A stretch of 64,000 nt of DNA, taken from sequence record MW650886.1; one strand, 5' to 3'. A program made the translations under genes and the position numbers. This document shows positions 3,122 through 25,344 of the stretch, in pieces; position 1 is the stretch's first letter; each line of letters begins with the position of its first letter. This DNA is from Escherichia phage vB_EcoM-ZQ1. Under the pieces are notes generated by a model, which saw only the letters and a program-made list of their open reading frames with translations, made no database searches and was not told the DNA's origin.

Positions 3122-6100
3122 TCAGATCTTAATCTGCATGTTGCCACCCAGGGACTGCTCGTACTCGCTGTATGCGCCTTCCCCGTAGTCTCGTGCCCAC
3201 TGGTCAGACTGCTGGGCGCTATCCAGAGTCATCAGGTTTGGTTCAGTCGGGTTGTAACCCTTGGACTTCGCATCCCGGTACAGAGTCTGCAGGTACTGGT
3301 TGGCGCGGTCAATCTGAGCTTTGAACTCGCGATATGCCCCTTCAGTTGTGTTGCGGCGGAAGGTGATATCCCAGTCCACGTTCAGAGTCTGACCATCACG
3401 GCTTGCATAGATCTGCCAATCCAGGTCGCGGCCTTTTGGTGCGTTGTCGCGGATGGAGTCGGCGTATGCCGCAAGGTCGTCCTTCGGATTGTGCGACGTG
3501 CTTTTCAGAAGTAGTGCATGACCCATACCACCGTTTGGCTCAAGAGACCATTTTCCTGTTTCTCTTCCCAGGCGTTCTATGTTGTTGAGTTGGTTTATCG
3601 ACAATTCAGAAGAGTCAAATAATACCACATCACGTTTTTTGGGGGTTCTCACATAAGGGGTGAGATCAATGTCGATCATCCGGTTTATAAATTCTACCAC
3701 TTCAGCTTGTTTCTTTGGCAATGTGGTATTGATATCCGGCTTGTTTGCCACTTTCTCTAGGCGTTTATTTTCTGCGCTTATCATGGACAGCATAATTTGT
3801 GTAACTTTGCCGTCAGACAAGTTGTAATCATTCCAAATCACTTCACCTTTATCCGTGATGGTTATATCGTTCAAGAACACCTGGTTTGGGTTGTATGACT
3901 GACTTTTCAACTGTTGGAGGTTTCTGGAAAGATATACCATTTTTGATGAAATCTCATCAATCACACTCTGGACCATATCTTTGTTTAAAGGAAGTTCATA
4001 TGTCTTCGGATTGTTCAGGGTACGCCCTTTCTGAGAGACAATTGGGGTGAATGCAACTTTACCTTTGTCGTAGTAATAGGTCACGTTGGTTATCATAGAA
4101 GTACCGGCGTATTTTCCCGTTTCGGGGAAATTGACATCCCACCGAATGGACATGCCGTTGACAGTCTCACCAAACACCATGGCGTTGCTTGGTATCTTCA
4201 GGGTTCCAGAGTTGACCAGATCAGCGCCTTGGGCATTCAGGTCGATAGAACCATAGATAGCCCCGGTAATACGATCTTTCAACATCAGGGTCTTGTCGCC
4301 CTTCTCTGGGATGATTTCCAGCGGGTGCTTGCCACGCGGAGGTTCTTTGATGAGTTCCAGTAGAGCAGTTTTCCCTGGTTTCACACGATTCAGGACAGCG
4401 TCGGACACTGTCAGAGTCCAGTTTGCGGTTTCCACATAACCCCAGCCCCGAGAACGGCGAATGGCTTTGATAGGATATGGAGCGCTTGTTGGCACTGCGC
4501 TAATTTCCCATTTGCCAGTGTACTGGGTCTTGGCAACCTCAAAGATGGACGCAATTACTGCATTGGCGACGTCACGGGCGCTACCTTTGGCCACGTTCTC
4601 CTCTTCAGCAATTTCGCTGAAAACTGAGTATTGAACGAAACCAGCGAGGACGTTTGTGAAGTTGACAACGATAACCAACCCGCCTGCTGTCGTGTAACGA
4701 CCAGCGCCCACACGACGGATGTTTTCACCAGGAAGAATAGAAGTGTCCAACCCAACGTTGGTATCAATGATACCCAGAACACGAGCGATGAAACCACTGT
4801 CACGTAATTGATCAACACTGGTTGCACCCTCGGTCGAATCCGATGCGGATTTAGACACTTTGTTCAACTTGATAGAGACAAGGGTTTCCCCGTTGACACC
4901 GATGATATCCCATTCAGTACCCTGCTCGTTCGAGGTGCGGGCAATCTTGCGCTTTGAATTGATGGCACCTTCGTAACGCCCGTTCTTGACCACAACAGAG
5001 GCAGTAGCAGCATCAGTCGCACTTGCTGCATTTGAAAAGTCTGGGTCAGAAATACTGATGTCGACGTCACCGTTTTGAGAACGCATGCGAACACCGTTTT
5101 TGAATCGTTCAACGTTTACTTCTCGAGCACCAAGTCGTTTGGCATCAATAACAGCAGTTCCAGAACCGATAATGTTGGCTGGGTTATTTCTGTCTGAACT
5201 GTTTTGAGAACCTTTCCAAAATTTTGTAGACGCCATGGTGAAATCATTCAGGATATTGATAGGGACTTGCGGTAATTTCAACTGACGAGCAATGAAATCA
5301 GCACTTTGCCCACGCACAGGTTTCTCATTCATGTATGCGCCAACATACACGCCCGGCTCATTGTAGTGGGGAGCGATATTTGCCGTGTTCGTGCGGCCTC
5401 TCTCCTTACCAGCCCATAACAACATGGGCTGATCCCCGTTTGAAGTTAATTTCCATCCGTTGCCATTGCTGGTGTCATTGCTGGTGTCATTGCTGGTGTC
5501 AACGTCCACCACCAGAATTATCTGAGCACCTTTCTTGAAAGTGTACTGATCGTACATACCTTTCTTCTGTTTGGTCATGGACGCACCGACCAAGTCTTGG
5601 TTGGTGAAGCCGCGCTTCATATTCCAAGATACCTCAGTCCCGTCTGGATATTTGTCAAAATCATAACCATAGAATGTGGCTACTTCTTTCGAACCGCTTA
5701 TCAGACGGACGTAATTTCCACGAATCGGGTCTCGCCCGCTCTTCAACTCCAGACCAGTGTCCGAGCTGTTGTACCACTCGCGGTTGACTTCTATTTCAGA
5801 AGAACCAGCCCCAACTCCCACATCCGGAGTATTGTTCTGAACCGGAACGTCACCGACTTTGTCTGGATCATCCCAGGTGATACCCTGCATCTTCGGACCG
5901 TCGAATACCTGAGCCGGATCTTTACCCTTACGAACTAGCCACACATAACCACGGTCAGGAACAGGCGCGTAGGTCAGGTCCATGACGTTCAGTTTCTGCT
6001 TCAGGCCGGACTGGCGGATGATCTTAGGAATCAGGGTCATACCGCGATCCAGCGCTTTCTTAGAGAAGTTGACAGCAAAGCCATCGATGGTCTTACCCAG

Positions 6101-6487: not shown

Positions 6488-6823
6488 TTATTTTTGAACT
6501 TGGGCTACAGACATCGCCCAGAGCGGGAGGGTGTGGGGGTCCAGGGCTTCCAGTAGATATTCGACGCGCTCTGACATGATACCTTCAGGGAAGTTTACTT
6601 CTTCTGGTTCGTTGTTGGCCGTCCAACCCAATGTCAGTCCTTCAGCGTGATGGATGATATAAACGAAGTCGTCTGGTTCGTAGTCCTTTTCCATCAGGGC
6701 GAAGAAATCTTCCATTTCTTCGTCGGAGAAGTAGTAGATGCGAGGTACAGAGCCGTCAGCAAAGTGCTCAGCACCCTGGAAGGCAAACATGTCATCGGCG
6801 GTGAAGTTCTTGAGTTGTGTCAT
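6488..6823 (-). CDS. hypothetical early protein (111 aa)
   Basis: ORF with conserved leader ...GGAACTATATC-ATG and upstream early promoter. Confidence 0.55.
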   Translation of the reverse strand: MTQLKNFTADDMFAFQGAEHFADGSVPRIYYFSDEEMEDFFALMEKDYEPDDFVYIIHHAEGLTLGWTANNEPEEVNFPEGIMSERVEYLLEALDPHTLPLWAMSVAQVQK

Positions 6824-20459: not shown

Positions 20460-20651
20460 TTAGCGCATCCATCGATCCTTTCTCTCTTTCTCCTTGCGTT
20501 CGCGACGTTTCTGGTCGGATCGGAATAACCAATAGAAGAAGTTCCCACCCAAGATGAAAACCACCGCGATTATTACTAGGACACCCTTCACAATTTCCCA
20601 AACCAATTCTTTATCCAAATTATACCTCGTCTTCTTCAGGTCCACCGTCAA
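20460..20651 (-). CDS. small membrane protein (63 aa)
   Basis: one hydrophobic helix followed by basic tail. Confidence 0.35.
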   Translation of the reverse strand: MTVDLKKTRYNLDKELVWEIVKGVLVIIAVVFILGGNFFYWLFRSDQKRRERKEKERKDRWMR

Positions 20652-20907
20652 TCAGGATACGAGCGGTGTCGAAAGTTTCCCCGCCCGTGTTCAGCAGCTT
20701 GGTTAGATCATCAAGAGTACCGACAGGGCCAAGATCAGATGACCGCGATATAAACTCCAGCATGCCATACAACGCTGTTTGGAATCGGCTGTTGTCGATA
20801 TCGTTCTTTATTACCATCAGGCGCAAGATGTTCTCTGACTGAGTATGGCCAACACACGCCTTGTCTCTGATCATCTCCTTGATAGAACTTCTCTCTGATG
20901 GTGTCAT
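20620..20907 (-). CDS. hypothetical protein (95 aa)
   Basis: ORF. Confidence 0.4.
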   Translation of the reverse strand: MTPSERSSIKEMIRDKACVGHTQSENILRLMVIKNDIDNSRFQTALYGMLEFISRSSDLGPVGTLDDLTKLLNTGGETFDTARILIDGGPEEDEV

Positions 20908-21278
20908 AACGTACCCCCGACAGAGATCAAGAACTCTTCTTGCATGGTCTTGACCGGGTGGTGGTTGCGGGTTTCGAACATGAAGCCCCAGCCACCGTCG
21001 GCGACGTTACCAAAGGTCTTGACACCAAAGGACTTCGTCCCGTTGGAGCAGGAATAGATGTCCAGGACGTATGGGCTACCCTGATTGTCGATCCCACGAT
21101 TCACGTCGTCTGATACACAGCGCTCAATCATCTTCCCGTTCTTATACAGAACGAGGTCTTGACCATACGCCTTGAAAGCATAAACACCGTTGGTAGACAC
21201 TCCGGTGATGACAGGAGGGGCGGAAACAGCAGCAAAGGAAGCGCCTAGCAGGGCAACAGCGAGGATTAACTTTTTCAT
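20904..21278 (-). CDS. secreted protein (124 aa)
   Basis: conserved leader ...GACTATATC-ATG; signal peptide MKKLILAVALLGASFAAVSA. Confidence 0.5.
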   Translation of the reverse strand: MKKLILAVALLGASFAAVSAPPVITGVSTNGVYAFKAYGQDLVLYKNGKMIERCVSDDVNRGIDNQGSPYVLDIYSCSNGTKSFGVKTFGNVADGGWGFMFETRNHHPVKTMQEEFLISVGGTL

Positions 21279-21302
21279 GATATAGTCTCTTGGTTTCAAA
21301 TG

Positions 21303-21324
21303 GGCGGGGTATGATTACCCCGCC
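21303..21324 (-). terminator. stem-loop terminator (repeat copy)
   Basis: ggcggggta-tgat-taccccgcc hairpin; near-identical copy at 21863. Confidence 0.45.
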
Positions 21325-21330
21325 GTGGGT

Positions 21331-21837
21331 TTATAGGGTAACAAGTGATACGGTAAAAACCATCGTCCCGTCTGTTGCCATTTTTCTTGAAACTGGTATG
21401 ACGCGAGGCTGGCAGAATATCCATTCTTTCTCCATGGACGCCAAGTCCAGCATATCCATTTCTGATTCATCGCCTTTGTTCACAAATTTTTCTAGAGAAC
21501 CATAGACATTAAGCCCCTCCGGGAGTCTGTTTCGATGTTTGTAACAAATGCGGGCAACAGCTTTGGTTCCGTACGATTTAGAAAATTTTTTGGCCACATG
21601 CTTCAGTTCACTGAAGCTAAGACAAGAATCCCATGTCTGGAACATGTCGCCTCGTTCAAACATCATCTCTAAACGCGCAACGTCCTCTTTAGGCAGCCCG
21701 CGATAAAGTGTGGTCGTCTGTGGTTCGCGCAATTCTTGCACCAGATCACGGACGGCAGGGGAAACAGTACCGGGGCGCATGATGTGGGACTTATCATGGA
21801 CGAGGTAAAATAAATCTTGAATTTGTTGATCAGTCAT
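21331..21837 (-). CDS. hypothetical protein (168 aa)
   Basis: conserved leader ...GGAACTATATC-ATG. Confidence 0.5.
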   Translation of the reverse strand: MTDQQIQDLFYLVHDKSHIMRPGTVSPAVRDLVQELREPQTTTLYRGLPKEDVARLEMMFERGDMFQTWDSCLSFSELKHVAKKFSKSYGTKAVARICYKHRNRLPEGLNVYGSLEKFVNKGDESEMDMLDLASMEKEWIFCQPRVIPVSRKMATDGTMVFTVSLVTL

Positions 21838-21862
21838 GATATAGTTCCTGCATTTCAAATAG

Positions 21863-21884
21863 ACGGGGTAATCATACCCCGCCC
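21863..21884 (-). terminator. stem-loop terminator (repeat copy)
   Basis: cggggta-atca-taccccg hairpin. Confidence 0.45.
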
Positions 21885-21896
21885 AAAGTTATAGAA

Positions 21897-22136
21897 TTAG
21901 CTGATATGCTTCAGAAGAGCGAAGAGGATCACGGCCTTGGCCTTTACCTTTCCTACGATGCCTGTCTCGACATCAACTTCTTCAGCAACCCACTCTTTTC
22001 CCTTCTTGCTGATGATAACGTCACGACGCTGTGCGTAGACTTCTTTGGTCGCATACACACGACGGAACCCTTTAGCGCGGAGCAATCCCCAATTGCGATC
22101 AATCTCTACTGAAGTTTCGACCATTTTGTTCTTCAT
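21897..22136 (-). CDS. hypothetical protein (79 aa)
   Basis: ORF with upstream early promoter. Confidence 0.45.
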   Translation of the reverse strand: MKNKMVETSVEIDRNWGLLRAKGFRRVYATKEVYAQRRDVIISKKGKEWVAEEVDVETGIVGKVKAKAVILFALLKHIS

Positions 22137-22187
22137 GATATAATCTTACCTTTCAACCCGGTGAACCCATCGTTCGCCAGTTATTGA

Positions 22188-22216
22188 ATAATAGGACATT
22201 CCTTAGAGGAAGTAAA
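22188..22216 (-). promoter_or_regulatory. T4-type early promoter (-35 GTTTAC, -10 TATTAT)
   Basis: GGTTTACTT - 17 bp - TATTAT. Confidence 0.5.
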
Positions 22217-22228
22217 CCCCTAAAAGTA

Positions 22229-22254
22229 AAAATCCCCAACGTTTGTTGGGGATT
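22229..22254 (-). terminator. stem-loop terminator (42-bp repeat copy 1)
   Basis: aaatccccaac-gttt-gttggggattt hairpin. Confidence 0.5.
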
Positions 22255-22269
22255 TAATAAAAGTTATGC

Positions 22270-22494
22270 CTATTTAATTTCTCGGCTTGAATTTTCTAGT
22301 TCTAATTTTCTTATAGCAGAAATTCTGCCTTCATCAGTTGCGGGAAACTCCCAAACAGCACGACGCCCGTTGTTGGTATCACAACTTGCCAGCCAGCAGA
22401 AATTAGAGGGGTCCTTAAACAAGACCAATTTAGGGTTAGCAATATTGTTCAGGCAAAATGGGGTGAGGTCAACAACACATGATATAGCAGACAT
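22270..22494 (-). CDS. hypothetical protein (74 aa)
   Basis: ORF flanked by 42-bp perfect direct repeats; start ambiguous between 22494 and 22479. Confidence 0.4.
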   Translation of the reverse strand: MSAISCVVDLTPFCLNNIANPKLVLFKDPSNFCWLASCDTNNGRRAVWEFPATDEGRISAIRKLELENSSREIK

Positions 22495-22543
22495 AATATA
22501 TACCTTCTTTCAATGAACGGGAACGCCCCGCTCTATGAATTCA

Positions 22544-22572
22544 ATAATACGCATTTACATTATAGAAGTAAA
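22544..22572 (-). promoter_or_regulatory. T4-type early promoter (-35 GTTTAC, -10 TATTAT)
   Basis: GGTTTACTT - 17 bp - TATTAT. Confidence 0.5.
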
Positions 22573-22584
22573 CCCCTAAAAGTA

Positions 22585-22610
22585 AAAATCCCCAACGTTT
22601 GTTGGGGACT
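22585..22610 (-). terminator. stem-loop terminator (42-bp repeat copy 2)
   Basis: ccccaac-gttt-gttgggg hairpin. Confidence 0.5.
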
Positions 22611-22614
22611 TCTG

Positions 22615-22938
22615 TTATTTGCGCAGGGCAACCACGAGTTCAGCGAGTTCACCCATGGTCGGGTCATCGCCTTTACTACCCAGCCAACCGTCGTCGATTT
22701 CGACCTGAAACTCTTCTTCTAGTTCCATTACGATTTCGATGGCATCCAGTTCGTCACCACCGAGGTCTTTCTTGGTACGGAGGCCAGCCAGCTTGTCCAG
22801 GGCGTCCTCGTTCTGAGATGCCACGTCGTCCAGCAATTTGCGCTTGTCATCGTCACGCCACAGATCCATATTCAGATTGTCAGTGGCGTACTGAGCCAGA
22901 TGACGCATGACTTCAACATATGTTGGTTTACTGCTCAT
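22615..22938 (-). CDS. acyl carrier protein homolog with Ser to Glu at the phosphopantetheine site
   Basis: DLGGDELDAIEIVMELEEEFQVEIDD aligns to E. coli ACP [27 protein letters not shown]; DSL replaced by DEL. Confidence 0.6.
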   Translation of the reverse strand: MSSKPTYVEVMRHLAQYATDNLNMDLWRDDDKRKLLDDVASQNEDALDKLAGLRTKKDLGGDELDAIEIVMELEEEFQVEIDDGWLGSKGDDPTMGELAELVVALRK

Positions 22939-22979: not shown

Positions 22980-25181
22980 TTAGATTTTGATTTCTTTCTC
23001 TGTCAGTTCGGCAGTGACCTTGTACTTCACGCCATCCACTTCAACTTCCATGGTGGACTCTTCCAGGTCGAGATCGGTGAACCAGCCATGGCCAGCAACG
23101 ATACCATAAACCACTTTAGACAGCGTCTTGTTCAGGGCACGGACTTCGGTGATGGCCGCCTTGGCAGCAGCGTCGATCCAGTTTTCGATCAGCTGTTTCT
23201 GTAAGGCTTCAGGCACGGCAGTGATCATAGGAGACTTCACGAATGCTTCGTACTCCTTCAGCGCATTGGCGATGAACAAGTCACCAGCATTGAGTTTCTT
23301 GTTCTCGGCAATCTTCTTCTGTACCGCTGCGATAGACGGTAGAGATGAAGCGCCAGCGATCTTCACGTTCAGCTCACGGCTCATGTAGAAGTCGGTAGAC
23401 TCTTTGGTCTCAGTCTTCGGTGAGAATCCGTAATCGCGGATGCCGTAGGAGGACAGGAACTCGGCCGCCTCAGCGCCGTACTGTACTGCCAGGCCTTTGG
23501 CGTTACCCTTACCAACCAGGGCGTCTCGATAGAACTTCAGCACCTTCTGCTTGCCTTTCAGGGCTTCCAGACGGACATTATCCGCAAAGAACTGAGCAGC
23601 ACTGATGTTCTTGACCATGGCGCGGTTGACCAGCGGTACGCTTTCCAGGTTCAGGACAAACACTTCCGGACCACCAAACACGTGGACGCCCATTTCGATC
23701 AGCTTCTGTACAACTTCGATATCAGCCTTGAACGGTAGAGTCTTCACGTTAATGATACCGTCTTTGACGATGGTGTAGTTGCGCCACTGGAAAGTATCCA
23801 GTTCTTCAGGCAGGCCAAACTTCTTCTGTGCGAATTCAGGCACAGCCACAGTACCGTGTTGAATTGTACGCACGCTGATGTTCGGGCGCTCGGAGTTATA
23901 GACCAAATCGCTGATTGGCACAACACCCAGGTCGTTGGTAGGTTCGAACGTCGGGTTCCACTCTTCGTGTTCTGCCAGCTTGAGAGCCAGGGCTTTACGC
24001 TCTTCTTTGGACTGAGCATTCGCGATCTGTTCTGCCAGCTTGTCTTCGGTGTCGTCGGTTTTCTGCACAGTACCGCGCCCGATGCTCTTATAGGAGAACA
24101 TCGGATGCTTGGTAGCAACAGGCACACCAGCTTCAGCCAGGTACGTCAGCACGTCAACGACGGTCGTCGCATCTTCAGCCGGAACCAGGTCATAGTCAAT
24201 ACCGTCAACGCCGCGCAGCTGGTCATCAACGATGGCCTGGGTCAGATCGTTCTTGATGTTGGAGTAGTCCTGCTTGGTGAAGCAGTTGCTGTACTGTTTG
24301 ATGAAGCGAACGTCGCCCGTCTTCTTCAGCGCAGCCCAAACCAGATCTGCGTCCATAGTGTGTACGCCGTAGAACGCCAGCACATATGCCGCCTGGATGT
24401 CCGTCAGGCTATCCATCTGGTCGATCATGTTGGGGTTTACAACCCACAGCTTGGTGACGCTCTCAGGGATGCTCACGTGGCCGATAGGATGGTCTTCATC
24501 CGGCTGTACCGCCAGCACAGTTGCTACGCCGTTTTCAACATAGATGGCGTGGGTGTATAGCAGAGGCACATCAACAACCACCTTCGGCACTGATGACTTC
24601 AGCACGTTTTCCAGTTCGGTCTGGTATTCGGTCTGACCTTCGGCAAACACGTGAGTTGCGCCAGAGCGCTCGGACATCTGCGCCAGCAGTTCACGGTTAC
24701 AGTGCCAGCCGTATTCGATGAAAGTAATGTTATCGAACGCGGAAGGAAGTTTTTCGGCGGTATCCAGGATTTCATTGGAGTGCCAGCAGTTGTCATAACC
24801 ATCGGTCATGAATGCCAGGTTGTTGACGTAGCCAGGTTTCTTCAGGTCACGCGCAGTATCCATCGCCAGTTTCAAAGGCTCAACAAAGCCAGTACATCCG
24901 GACGGTTGCAGGAAGCGATCGATCAGTTTGTTCAGCTCGCTCAGGTCAGACGCAGCACTAACCTGGCGGCCAGCGAACACAGTACCAAAGTCTCCTTTGG
25001 AGGAGAAATACAGAACGCTCACAGTGTCTTCCGGTTTCACCAGGGAAGGCAGGTTCTCCTTCAGATGCTTACGGACTTCAGGGAGCGCACGGTACATAGA
25101 GCCGGAAATGTCTACAACGATTACATGGTTGGACGGAGCAGCAGTCGCAACCGCATTCTTAAATTCTAATGATTCAATCAT
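22980..25181 (-). CDS. von Willebrand factor A (vWA) domain protein (~733 aa)
   Basis: MIDAS motif VIVVDISGSM near N-terminus; start at internal ATG 25181 with GAAGAAGG RBS. Confidence 0.6.
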   Translation of the reverse strand: MIESLEFKNAVATAAPSNHVIVVDISGSMYRALPEVRKHLKENLPSLVKPEDTVSVLYFSSKGDFGTVFAGRQVSAASDLSELNKLIDRFLQPSGCTGFVEPLKLAMDTARDLKKPGYVNNLAFMTDGYDNCWHSNEILDTAEKLPSAFDNITFIEYGWHCNRELLAQMSERSGATHVFAEGQTEYQTELENVLKSSVPKVVVDVPLLYTHAIYVENGVATVLAVQPDEDHPIGHVSIPESVTKLWVVNPNMIDQMDSLTDIQAAYVLAFYGVHTMDADLVWAALKKTGDVRFIKQYSNCFTKQDYSNIKNDLTQAIVDDQLRGVDGIDYDLVPAEDATTVVDVLTYLAEAGVPVATKHPMFSYKSIGRGTVQKTDDTEDKLAEQIANAQSKEERKALALKLAEHEEWNPTFEPTNDLGVVPISDLVYNSERPNISVRTIQHGTVAVPEFAQKKFGLPEELDTFQWRNYTIVKDGIINVKTLPFKADIEVVQKLIEMGVHVFGGPEVFVLNLESVPLVNRAMVKNISAAQFFADNVRLEALKGKQKVLKFYRDALVGKGNAKGLAVQYGAEAAEFLSSYGIRDYGFSPKTETKESTDFYMSRELNVKIAGASSLPSIAAVQKKIAENKKLNAGDLFIANALKEYEAFVKSPMITAVPEALQKQLIENWIDAAAKAAITEVRALNKTLSKVVYGIVAGHGWFTDLDLEESTMEVEVDGVKYKVTAELTEKEIKI

Positions 25182-25344
25182 CGTTATTGCCTTCTTCAGG
25201 GTTGTCTTCGGCCTCACCTTCCGGCTTGGCCAGCATATATTCAAGGAAGTCGCGATTGAGTTCAATCTGACTCATCAGCGTTTCGCTCGGTTTAAAGCTG
25301 AGGTCGATGGTGTCTAGACCAGCTTTCTTGAATGGTTCTGTCAT
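25174..25344 (-). CDS. small acidic protein (56 aa), not in ORF track
   Basis: ORF whose stop overlaps vWA start (ATGATTGA). Confidence 0.3.
   Translation of the reverse strand: MTEPFKKAGLDTIDLSFKPSETLMSQIELNRDFLEYMLAKPEGEAEDNPEEGNNDD

Follow-up and report, generated by a model that had tools for sequence, protein, structure and literature searches.

The gene at positions 21331-21837 of the 64,000-nucleotide stretch of Escherichia phage vB_EcoM-ZQ1 analysed here (sequence record MW650886.1; hereafter the window) encodes a predicted ADP-ribosyltransferase (ART) and lies between two copies of a short intergenic unit, each made of a GC-rich hairpin and a translation-initiation leader. In some close relatives a segment exactly one repeat period long, holding the ART gene, is missing and a single hybrid unit is left, and in others the same slot holds a different gene. 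From these comparisons it is likely that the ART cassette turns over by recombination at the conserved intergenic units, as for the promoter-early stem-loop (PeSL) cassettes of T4-like phages. By its sequence matches the window comes from an Agtrevirus-like phage of the Ackermannviridae. The best match to positions 20600-22252 is Escherichia phage AV101 (Aglimvirinae, 97.8% identity), followed by Enterobacter phage fGh-Ecl02 (97.3%), and the 175 phage records that match positions 20600-22300 are, with few exceptions, Ackermannviridae. All genes around the locus are on the minus strand, so that upstream corresponds to higher coordinates. The features concerned are the following.

20904-21278, minus strand: gene of 124 codons (phrog_5474), downstream anchor of the slot in Agtrevirus-type genomes; product with a signal-peptide-like N-terminus.
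21275-21324, minus strand: repeat copy 1 (3' unit), between the ART stop codon and the start codon of the 124-aa gene; coding strand GGCGGGGTAATCATACCCCGCC-CATTTGAAA-CCAAGAGACTATATC-ATGA.
21303-21324, minus strand: stem-loop of the 3' unit, with a perfect 9-bp stem and its loop at 21312-21315; centroid -18.3 kcal/mol.
21294-21860, no strand: presence/absence polymorphism, whose ends can be placed only to the shared ATTTGAAA tract at 21294-21301 and 21853-21860.
21331-21837, minus strand: ART gene, 168 aa, predicted R-S-ExE type; variable cargo of the slot.
21834-21883, minus strand: repeat copy 2 (5' unit), between the stop codon of the 79-aa gene and the ART start; coding strand GGCGGGGTATGATTACCCCGTC-TATTTGAAA-TGCAGGAACTATATC-ATGA.
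21838-21859, minus strand: leader of the ART gene, composed of TTTGAAA, 4 nt, a Shine-Dalgarno-like AGGA and the spacer ACTATATC before the ATG.
21860-21885, minus strand: stem-loop of the 5' unit, 11 pairs including G.U pairs, loop UGAU on the coding strand; centroid -18.6 kcal/mol.
21897-22136, minus strand: gene of 79 codons (phrog_804), upstream anchor of the slot, with homologues in 271 phage records.

A repeat search of the window aligned positions 21275-21324 with 21834-21883 as an ungapped direct repeat of 50 nt, identical at 39 of the 50 positions (78%) and spaced by 559 bp. The initial annotation had described about 60 bp of near-identical sequence upstream of genes 20904-21278 and 21331-21837. 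The repeat does exist at these two places, and both copies carry the pattern reported there, catgatatagt...tttcaaat...cggggta-N4-taccccgcc. However, it extends over 50 nt, the copies share only a CTATAA hexamer past the hairpin, and at 78% identity, with a leader half no closer than the common leader consensus and loops in opposite orientation, "near-identical" overstates the likeness. On the coding strand each copy reads as the GC-rich hairpin, (T/C)ATTTGAAA, 4 nt, GGA or GAG, ACTATATC and ATG. The start codons thus abut the copies (gene 20904-21278 has its CAT at 21276-21278, gene 21331-21837 at 21835-21837), and the units terminate in AGGAACTATATC-ATG and AGAGACTATATC-ATG, with the start codon of the downstream gene preceded by its Shine-Dalgarno sequence. 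The second-best match of the 50-mer within the window is 32/50, and the best match in 100 Markov-simulated sequences of 64 kb is 31/50. A chance repeat was rejected on this comparison and on the count of the stem motif, found at two sites against none expected.

The two halves of the repeat are of unlike status: the leader half is dispersed in the window and the hairpin half is specific to the locus. The initial annotation had made the case depend on a similarity beyond that of shared expression signals, and this excess is present in the hairpin half and absent from the leader half. The leader consensus TTGAAA-N4-GGAACTATATC-ATG occurs at about nine gene starts in the window and is not particular to this pair. 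Some nine minus-strand starts (633, 6823, 21278, 21837, 22136, 28178, 39926, 40717 and 50656) carry TTGAAA-N3-5-(A)GGA-ACTATATC-ATG, and CATGATATAGT is found 9 times against 0.86 expected. The leader of copy 2 has its best matches elsewhere, with 25/27 identities at 6820 and 24/27 at both 39923 and 50653, compared to just 22/27 with copy 1. Because it fits the leaders of other genes better than that of its partner, the leader half is the common consensus of the gene starts of this phage and not a specific duplication. By contrast, the hairpin GGCGGGGTA-N4-TACCCCGCC is present at only two sites in the 64 kb, both at this locus, and in whole genomes of relatives at this locus only. Its core, CGGGGTA-N4-TACCCCG, occurs exactly twice in the window against no expected occurrence, and the other stem-loops nearby have unrelated stems. 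The possibility that the hairpin is a dispersed mobile element was tried with a scan of IMG/VR and rejected: among the 21 loci obtained, the 12 from Ackermannviridae (genome-length contigs, which served for the single-locus check) all lie at this locus, and the remaining 9 are GC-rich hairpins unrelated to it, whose loops and surroundings differ.

Evidence of a cassette comes from relatives in which the 559-bp segment is missing, namely PC3, PH4, A221, Ag3, pertopsoe and others. In PC3, whose flanks are 98-99% identical to the window, 59 nt separate the 124-aa gene from the 79-aa gene, instead of 618 nt, a difference of exactly 559. The single unit of PC3 is a hybrid, in which the hairpin of the 5' unit (..CCCCGTC-T) is joined to the leader of the 3' unit (CCAAGAGAC) through ATTTGAAA. 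Empty alleles span 669-678 bp, compared to 1237 bp in the window, in seven of the eight empty rows sampled; Marshall has 600 bp in three pieces. Variants of the hybrid unit cannot serve to count independent deletions, since the diagnostic GTC/GCC and GGC/GGT positions are polymorphic among ART-bearing genomes too.

The slot has several alternative occupants. ART is present in the window, AV101, fGh-Ecl02, MK-13, ChubbyThor, CECAV_050, SNUABM-02, CBA120 and bering; an ART allele 57% identical and lacking the 3' hairpin is present in PhiSH19; and denV occupies the slot, again without a 3' hairpin, in P46FS4, RC-2014, SFP10 and KWBSE43-6. The slot is empty, with the 124-aa gene directly after the unit, in PC3, pertopsoe, Ag3 and Marshall-type genomes, and two further relatives (L009 and L011) carry an orf138-type 92-aa gene or another gene. 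In CBA120-type genomes the 92-aa gene (orf138) takes the place of the 124-aa gene. Slot states were tabulated on a spread sample of 60 of the 149 megablast records:

ART with the 124-aa gene as neighbour: 3 of 60 rows.
ART with a different downstream neighbour, homology starting at 21275: 19 of 60 rows.
Empty slot: 8 of 60 rows.
denV with the 124-aa gene as neighbour: 9 of 60 rows.
Divergent ART: 4 of 60 rows.
Homology starting at 21826/21833, limited to the 79-aa gene and the 5' unit: 14 of 60 rows.
Short matches from Klebsiella phages: 3 of 60 rows.

The megablast breakpoints coincide with the starts of the repeats, query position 372 corresponding to window position 21275 and query 923/930 to window 21826/21833. 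Likewise, the homology of CBA120 to the window stops right after ..CCCGCCCATTTGAAA, once past the ATTTGAAA of the 3' unit. In the phage collection, ART of the Ackermannviridae type was found in about 66 records (77 minus 11 Erwinia jumbo phages) and a denV sharing 90% or more identity with the P46FS4 gene in 100 records; these are counts of genes and not of slots. Thus, the comparative genomics that the initial annotation had proposed as a check places both the indel and the breakpoints of relatives on the units. Its central claim holds: a hairpin-plus-leader unit stands on either side of the 168-aa gene, which behaves as a cassette, as judged from the 559-bp absence, the hybrid unit, the denV alternative and the breakpoints.

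Several variants of the slot are of interest in their own right. In the IMG/VR contig IMGVR_UViG_2974574446_000001 (L013, positions 4579-4640) the slot is empty with a shorter junction, the hairpin being followed by CATTTGAAGAGACTATATTATG. This is the junction expected if denV had been deleted between TTTGAA of the leader and TCTGAA of the denV stop region, and it points to a second kind of empty allele that would have arisen independently. The divergent ART allele (positions 2066-2580 of the PhiSH19 locus L007, minus strand) is located in this slot in PhiSH19, barely and BRM 13312 and encodes a protein 56-58% identical to that of the window. It lacks the 3' hairpin, and because its first ~80 nt are 91% identical to the window a breakpoint lies inside the open reading frame (ORF). 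In the RefSeq record of PhiSH19 this ORF is unannotated and the overlapping gp095 is annotated instead. The Klebsiella Ackermannviridae phages have a short, 78%-identical match to 21229-21327, comprising the N-terminus of the 124-aa gene, the leader and the hairpin.

The ART gene and its neighbours differ in divergence. Compared to MK-13 and ChubbyThor, the ART gene is 98.4-98.6% identical, with a synonymous divergence (dS) of 0.03-0.04, whereas identity is 90-93% and dS 0.21-0.36 in the two flanking genes (124 and 79 aa). Fisher tests on mismatches in ART against the flanks gave p = 6e-7 and 9e-8. In PC3 and in the IMG/VR contig L020, ART is absent and the flanking 124-aa and 79-aa genes are 98-99% identical to the window. 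Therefore the cargo and its flanks have had different histories, and the switch from one to the other lies between the ORFs, i.e. in the units.

Taken as recombination at the units, these observations would be explained as follows. The two repeats are copies of a short intergenic unit in which a stem-loop that closes the upstream cistron is followed by the leader that is standard for translation initiation in this phage (TTTGAAA, 4 nt, GGA or GAG as a Shine-Dalgarno-like element, ACTATATC as spacer, ATG). The ART gene and one unit make up a module of 559 bp, which would be deleted when the two units of one genome recombine through homology or short homology. Recombination at a unit between co-infecting relatives would insert it. 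Unequal exchange between genomes would provide a new neighbour, for example by joining a CBA120-type ART and unit to an Agtrevirus-type unit and 124-aa gene. In this way the slot that follows the 79-aa gene would act as a swap point, and in different phages it is empty or holds ART, the 57%-identical ART allele or denV. The crossovers would fall inside the units and not merely near them, and the direction given to single events, whether gain or loss, is likewise presumed. At the inferred crossover the perfect identity amounts to 8 nt (ATTTGAAA) in the window and to as much as 31 nt in genomes like SNUABM-02.

Some points weigh against this interpretation. The 8-nt tract of ATTTGAAA is short for efficient homologous recombination, and the hairpin is confined to one locus and does not form a dispersed family like the PeSLs. 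Moreover, the leader is a shared consensus, whose presence on both sides is expected without any history of recombination, and the exchange of denV for ART needs only the long conserved flanking genes and requires no role for the units. The last two points are those that favour a purely regulatory likeness, in which both genes need the same expression signals, turnover occurs by homologous recombination in the long flanking genes and the repeats are bystanders: the leader half is no more alike between the copies than to seven other leaders of the window, and denV and ART interchange with long homologous flanks on both sides. However, a general need for a stem-loop cannot explain an identical stem that is unique to the two sites when the other hairpins of the region differ. 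Nor does such a likeness account for an empty allele with a hybrid unit and a length reduced by precisely one repeat period, or for the CBA120 junction, where a different downstream gene follows right after the ATTTGAAA of the unit. By the dS discontinuity, too, the exchanged piece ends between the ART ORF and its neighbours, in the units. We therefore regard the repeats as unlikely to be bystanders.

The loops of the two hairpins bear on a second explanation. Both hairpins share one stem, but the 4-nt loop of one, TGAT, is the reverse complement of the other, ATCA. In direct register the hairpin halves match at 17/23 positions, and as an inverted repeat at 22/22; a flip of the 3' loop, together with a matching flank, accounts for the 22-nt perfect inverted repeat, and the flip also accounts for the direct identity of only 78%. 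The loop of the 3' unit (21312-21315) is the reverse complement of that in AV101, fGh-Ecl02, MK-13, ChubbyThor, CECAV_050 and SNUABM-02, and the flipped form is also present in the IMG/VR contig 3300045988_142553 and in bering. In AV101 the loop has the opposite orientation although its ART gene is 98.6% identical to that of the window. The direct orientation of both hairpins prevails in most ART-bearing relatives, and the two units of pSal-SNUABM-02 are identical over 31 nt. A flip is also seen at the unrelated hairpin of the neighbouring cassette, with the loop AAAC against GTTT between pertopsoe (L003, 2837-2957) and the window (22495-22614).

Small inversions of hairpin loops and quasipalindrome template-switch mutations are known from chloroplast non-coding DNA and from mutagenesis studies in E. 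coli and T4. The present case is similar in that a 4-nt loop is reverse-complemented between sequences 98.6% identical, with a perfect inverted-repeat stem on both sides; it differs in being a natural polymorphism at the cassette boundaries of a virulent phage, known from sequence alone. We take the flips to be template-switch or intra-palindrome events. A stronger proposal is that the palindromic hairpin DNA is an active hot spot, which extrudes during replication, is cut or copied across by phage enzymes and so drives both loop flips and cassette exchange. The flips in the window, in 3300045988_142553 and in bering with respect to the six direct-loop relatives, the similar flip between pertopsoe and the window, and the presence of hairpins at the boundaries of both cassettes are in keeping with it. 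Nevertheless, the crossover points lie at ATTTGAAA, just outside the stem and not within it, denV cassettes turn over without a 3' hairpin, template switching can flip loops with no tie to cassette exchange, and no result implicates an enzyme; such a hot spot is very improbable. The broader idea, that the boundary palindromes form DNA structures in replication and actively promote template switching and recombination, beyond serving as an RNA signal or as passive homology, is quite doubtful. If it were true, one class of events would yield the loop flips at two unrelated hairpins as well as the exchange of accessory genes such as ART, and hairpin-bounded slots would be evolved gene-swapping sites in Ackermannviridae.

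It is extremely unlikely that the ART segment is a self-mobilising element of transposon or homing type with the repeats as its ends or target-site duplications: flanking direct repeats and presence or absence in close relatives do superficially resemble insertion with target duplication, but ART is the sole credible ORF in the segment, where a transposase, integrase or homing nuclease is lacking, the "duplication" measures 31-50 nt and contains a conserved hairpin that the empty sites of all genera also carry, and ART is always found in one slot, beside the 79-aa gene.

The pattern at this locus is close to that of the PeSL cassettes. Arbiol et al. (2010; PMC2839356) described ORFs that are flanked by PeSLs in RB49 and phi1 and replaced in the sister phage by one chimeric PeSL, and proposed recombination between the units; these cassettes were extended by Comeau et al. 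(2014; PMC4122927). In both systems a conserved intergenic unit has a stable stem-loop and, at its end, the start codon of the following gene with its Shine-Dalgarno sequence; copies of the unit flank variable, non-essential genes, a phage without the gene keeps one chimeric unit, and insertion, deletion and replacement are ascribed to recombination between units. The unit described here, known from sequence and from another phage family, the Ackermannviridae, differs in having no sigma-70-like promoter, in a similarity of 31-50 nt compared to ~100 bp, and in a hairpin restricted to one locus compared to ~50 dispersed PeSL copies per genome, only the leader half being dispersed (9 sites). For lack of a promoter, with its shorter similarity and single locus, the unit is not classed as a PeSL, though it works like one. 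Nothing relevant was found in the open-access literature as a prior account of the unit or as transcript maps in Ackermannviridae. The phenomenon itself is not a new kind of system, being much as already described for T4-like phages.

The hairpin half probably works at the level of the sense mRNA, either attenuating it or protecting its 3' end. Compared to shuffled sequences, the fold z-scores are -3.3 for the 9-bp stem of the 3' unit and -2.3 for the 11-bp stem of the 5' unit. The 5'-unit hairpin follows the 79-aa gene in every relative inspected, whatever gene comes next, and its UGAU-loop form followed by TATTTGAAA is kept across Aglimvirinae, Cvivirinae and Taipeivirus. In 15 distinct variants from relatives, 98.5% of the stem cells pair. 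In all nine cases of a one-sided stem change the coding strand has a G.U pair, which would be C.A in the opposite strand; one double change from G-C to A-U was found, and stem pair 2 forms a series of G-C, G.U and A-U across genera. For a small sample of related sequences, this substitution pattern lends modest support to selection on the sense RNA.

The initial annotation had called these hairpins terminators. As GC-rich stem-loops of 9-11 bp and about -18 kcal/mol just past a stop codon they do resemble intrinsic terminators, and the depositors of KWBSE43-6 (Taipeivirus) annotated the homologous hairpin as an ARNold-predicted terminator. However, the tail (T/C)ATTTGAAA, that is UAUUUGAA or CAUUUGAA, contains only 3-4 U. 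Neither hairpin was called by a terminator scan requiring 5 U in 8, the tails TATTTGAA and CATTTGAA having 4 and 3 T in 8. A role as attenuator or 3'-end stabiliser is at least as likely as one as intrinsic terminator. A promoter scan found no sigma-70-like promoter on the coding (minus) strand in 21279-21330 or 21838-21896, the nearest minus-strand sites being 22216-22188 and 19955-19927, and Rfam gave no match at E up to 1 in 20500-22800.

As for the leader half, the leader of denV is identical to that of ART in the phages that carry denV in the slot. The conservation of the spacer between the ribosome-binding site and the ATG is unusual; it could reflect a translational-control site or have been left by the spread of cassettes. 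On the opposite strand the leader reads TGATATAGT, which resembles an extended -10, and the promoter hits on the plus strand at 21817-21845 and 22117-22144 correspond to this antisense reading and were set aside as probably spurious. Upstream of the minus-strand starts at 6823, 39926 and 50656 the standard leader is preceded by a long repeated module, TTTACTTCTTCAATAA...TATACT/TATAAT...CATAAGCAG(T/C)ACGACACCAACTTGAAA. This module, comprising a promoter and a 5' untranslated region, is probably the early promoter unit of the phage.

The cargo of the slot in the window is, by prediction, an ART of the R-S-ExE type. The 168-aa protein matches phrog_832, "RNA polymerase ADP-ribosylase", with an E-value of 5.7e-15, and RefSeq gives its homologues the same name, by inference from homology. 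Pfam returned no ART family match and only RavZ_cat below threshold, and a sequence search of the PDB returned no ART, only citrate synthase at E 1.5. The homologue search yielded 9 relatives, so the family is a small one. In 10 sequences, down to ~56-57% identity, R46 (in YRG or WRG), S74 (in LSFS or LSMT) and E136-x-E138 are invariant, which is the R...S-x-S...E-x-E signature of T4 Alt, ModA and ModB and of C3, ExoS and HopU1. An AlphaFold2 model (predicted local distance difference test, pLDDT, 85.8; predicted template modelling score, pTM, 0.80) agrees with the fold of C3-like ARTs. The top Foldseek matches in the PDB are all ARTs, with E-values of 6e-7 to 1e-4 and template modelling (TM) scores of 0.5-0.59: HopU1 (E 5.8e-7), C3 exoenzymes (C3bot, E 1e-5), ExoS/T and 6dre/6drh, an entry entitled "ADP-ribosyltransferase toxin/immunity pair". 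Unlike the known R-S-E ARTs, the protein has neither a Pfam ART domain nor a sequence-level match in the PDB, and its 168 residues compare to 170-413 in the matched structures.

The initial annotation had also mentioned the same cassette architecture elsewhere in the region, and this was borne out by the neighbouring 74-aa gene (22270-22494, minus strand, phrog_22629). It is flanked by 73-nt direct repeats (22183-22255 and 22539-22611, 84% identity), is absent from AV101 and PC3, which have one hybrid intergenic region, and is present in pertopsoe and pSal-SNUABM-02. Each repeat contains a terminator-like hairpin, CCCCAAC-N4-GTTGGGG, with a T-run and then a sigma-70-like TTTACT-N17-TATTAT. With its terminator-like hairpin and promoter-like site this unit is nearer to the true PeSL than that around ART, and from its sequence appears PeSL-like in the strict sense.

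Other genes of the region can be mentioned briefly. The signal-peptide-like N-terminus of the 124-aa protein (20904-21278, minus strand) reads MKKLILAVALLGASFAAVSAPP. Upstream of the cassettes, 22615-22938 (minus strand) is an acyl-carrier-protein-like gene (PF00550, phrog_4154), and 22980-25265 (minus strand) encodes a 761-aa protein whose homologues in relatives are annotated with a von Willebrand factor A domain. Both are kept in all inspected relatives.

The locus provides a concrete swap point in the Ackermannviridae, phages that are widely used as candidates for biocontrol and therapy. It holds ART, denV (a UV-repair glycosylase gene) or nothing, with boundaries that can be resolved to a tract of 8-31 nt. 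The logic of regulatory-cassette shuffling in T4-like phages would thereby extend to another family, with a promoterless unit. The pair formed by AV101, with ART, and PC3, without it, whose flanks are 96-99% identical to the window, is a tractable system for the homology needs of the exchange. In Ackermannviridae the presence of ART is not predictable from phylogeny, and the slot would be a natural site for engineering payloads.

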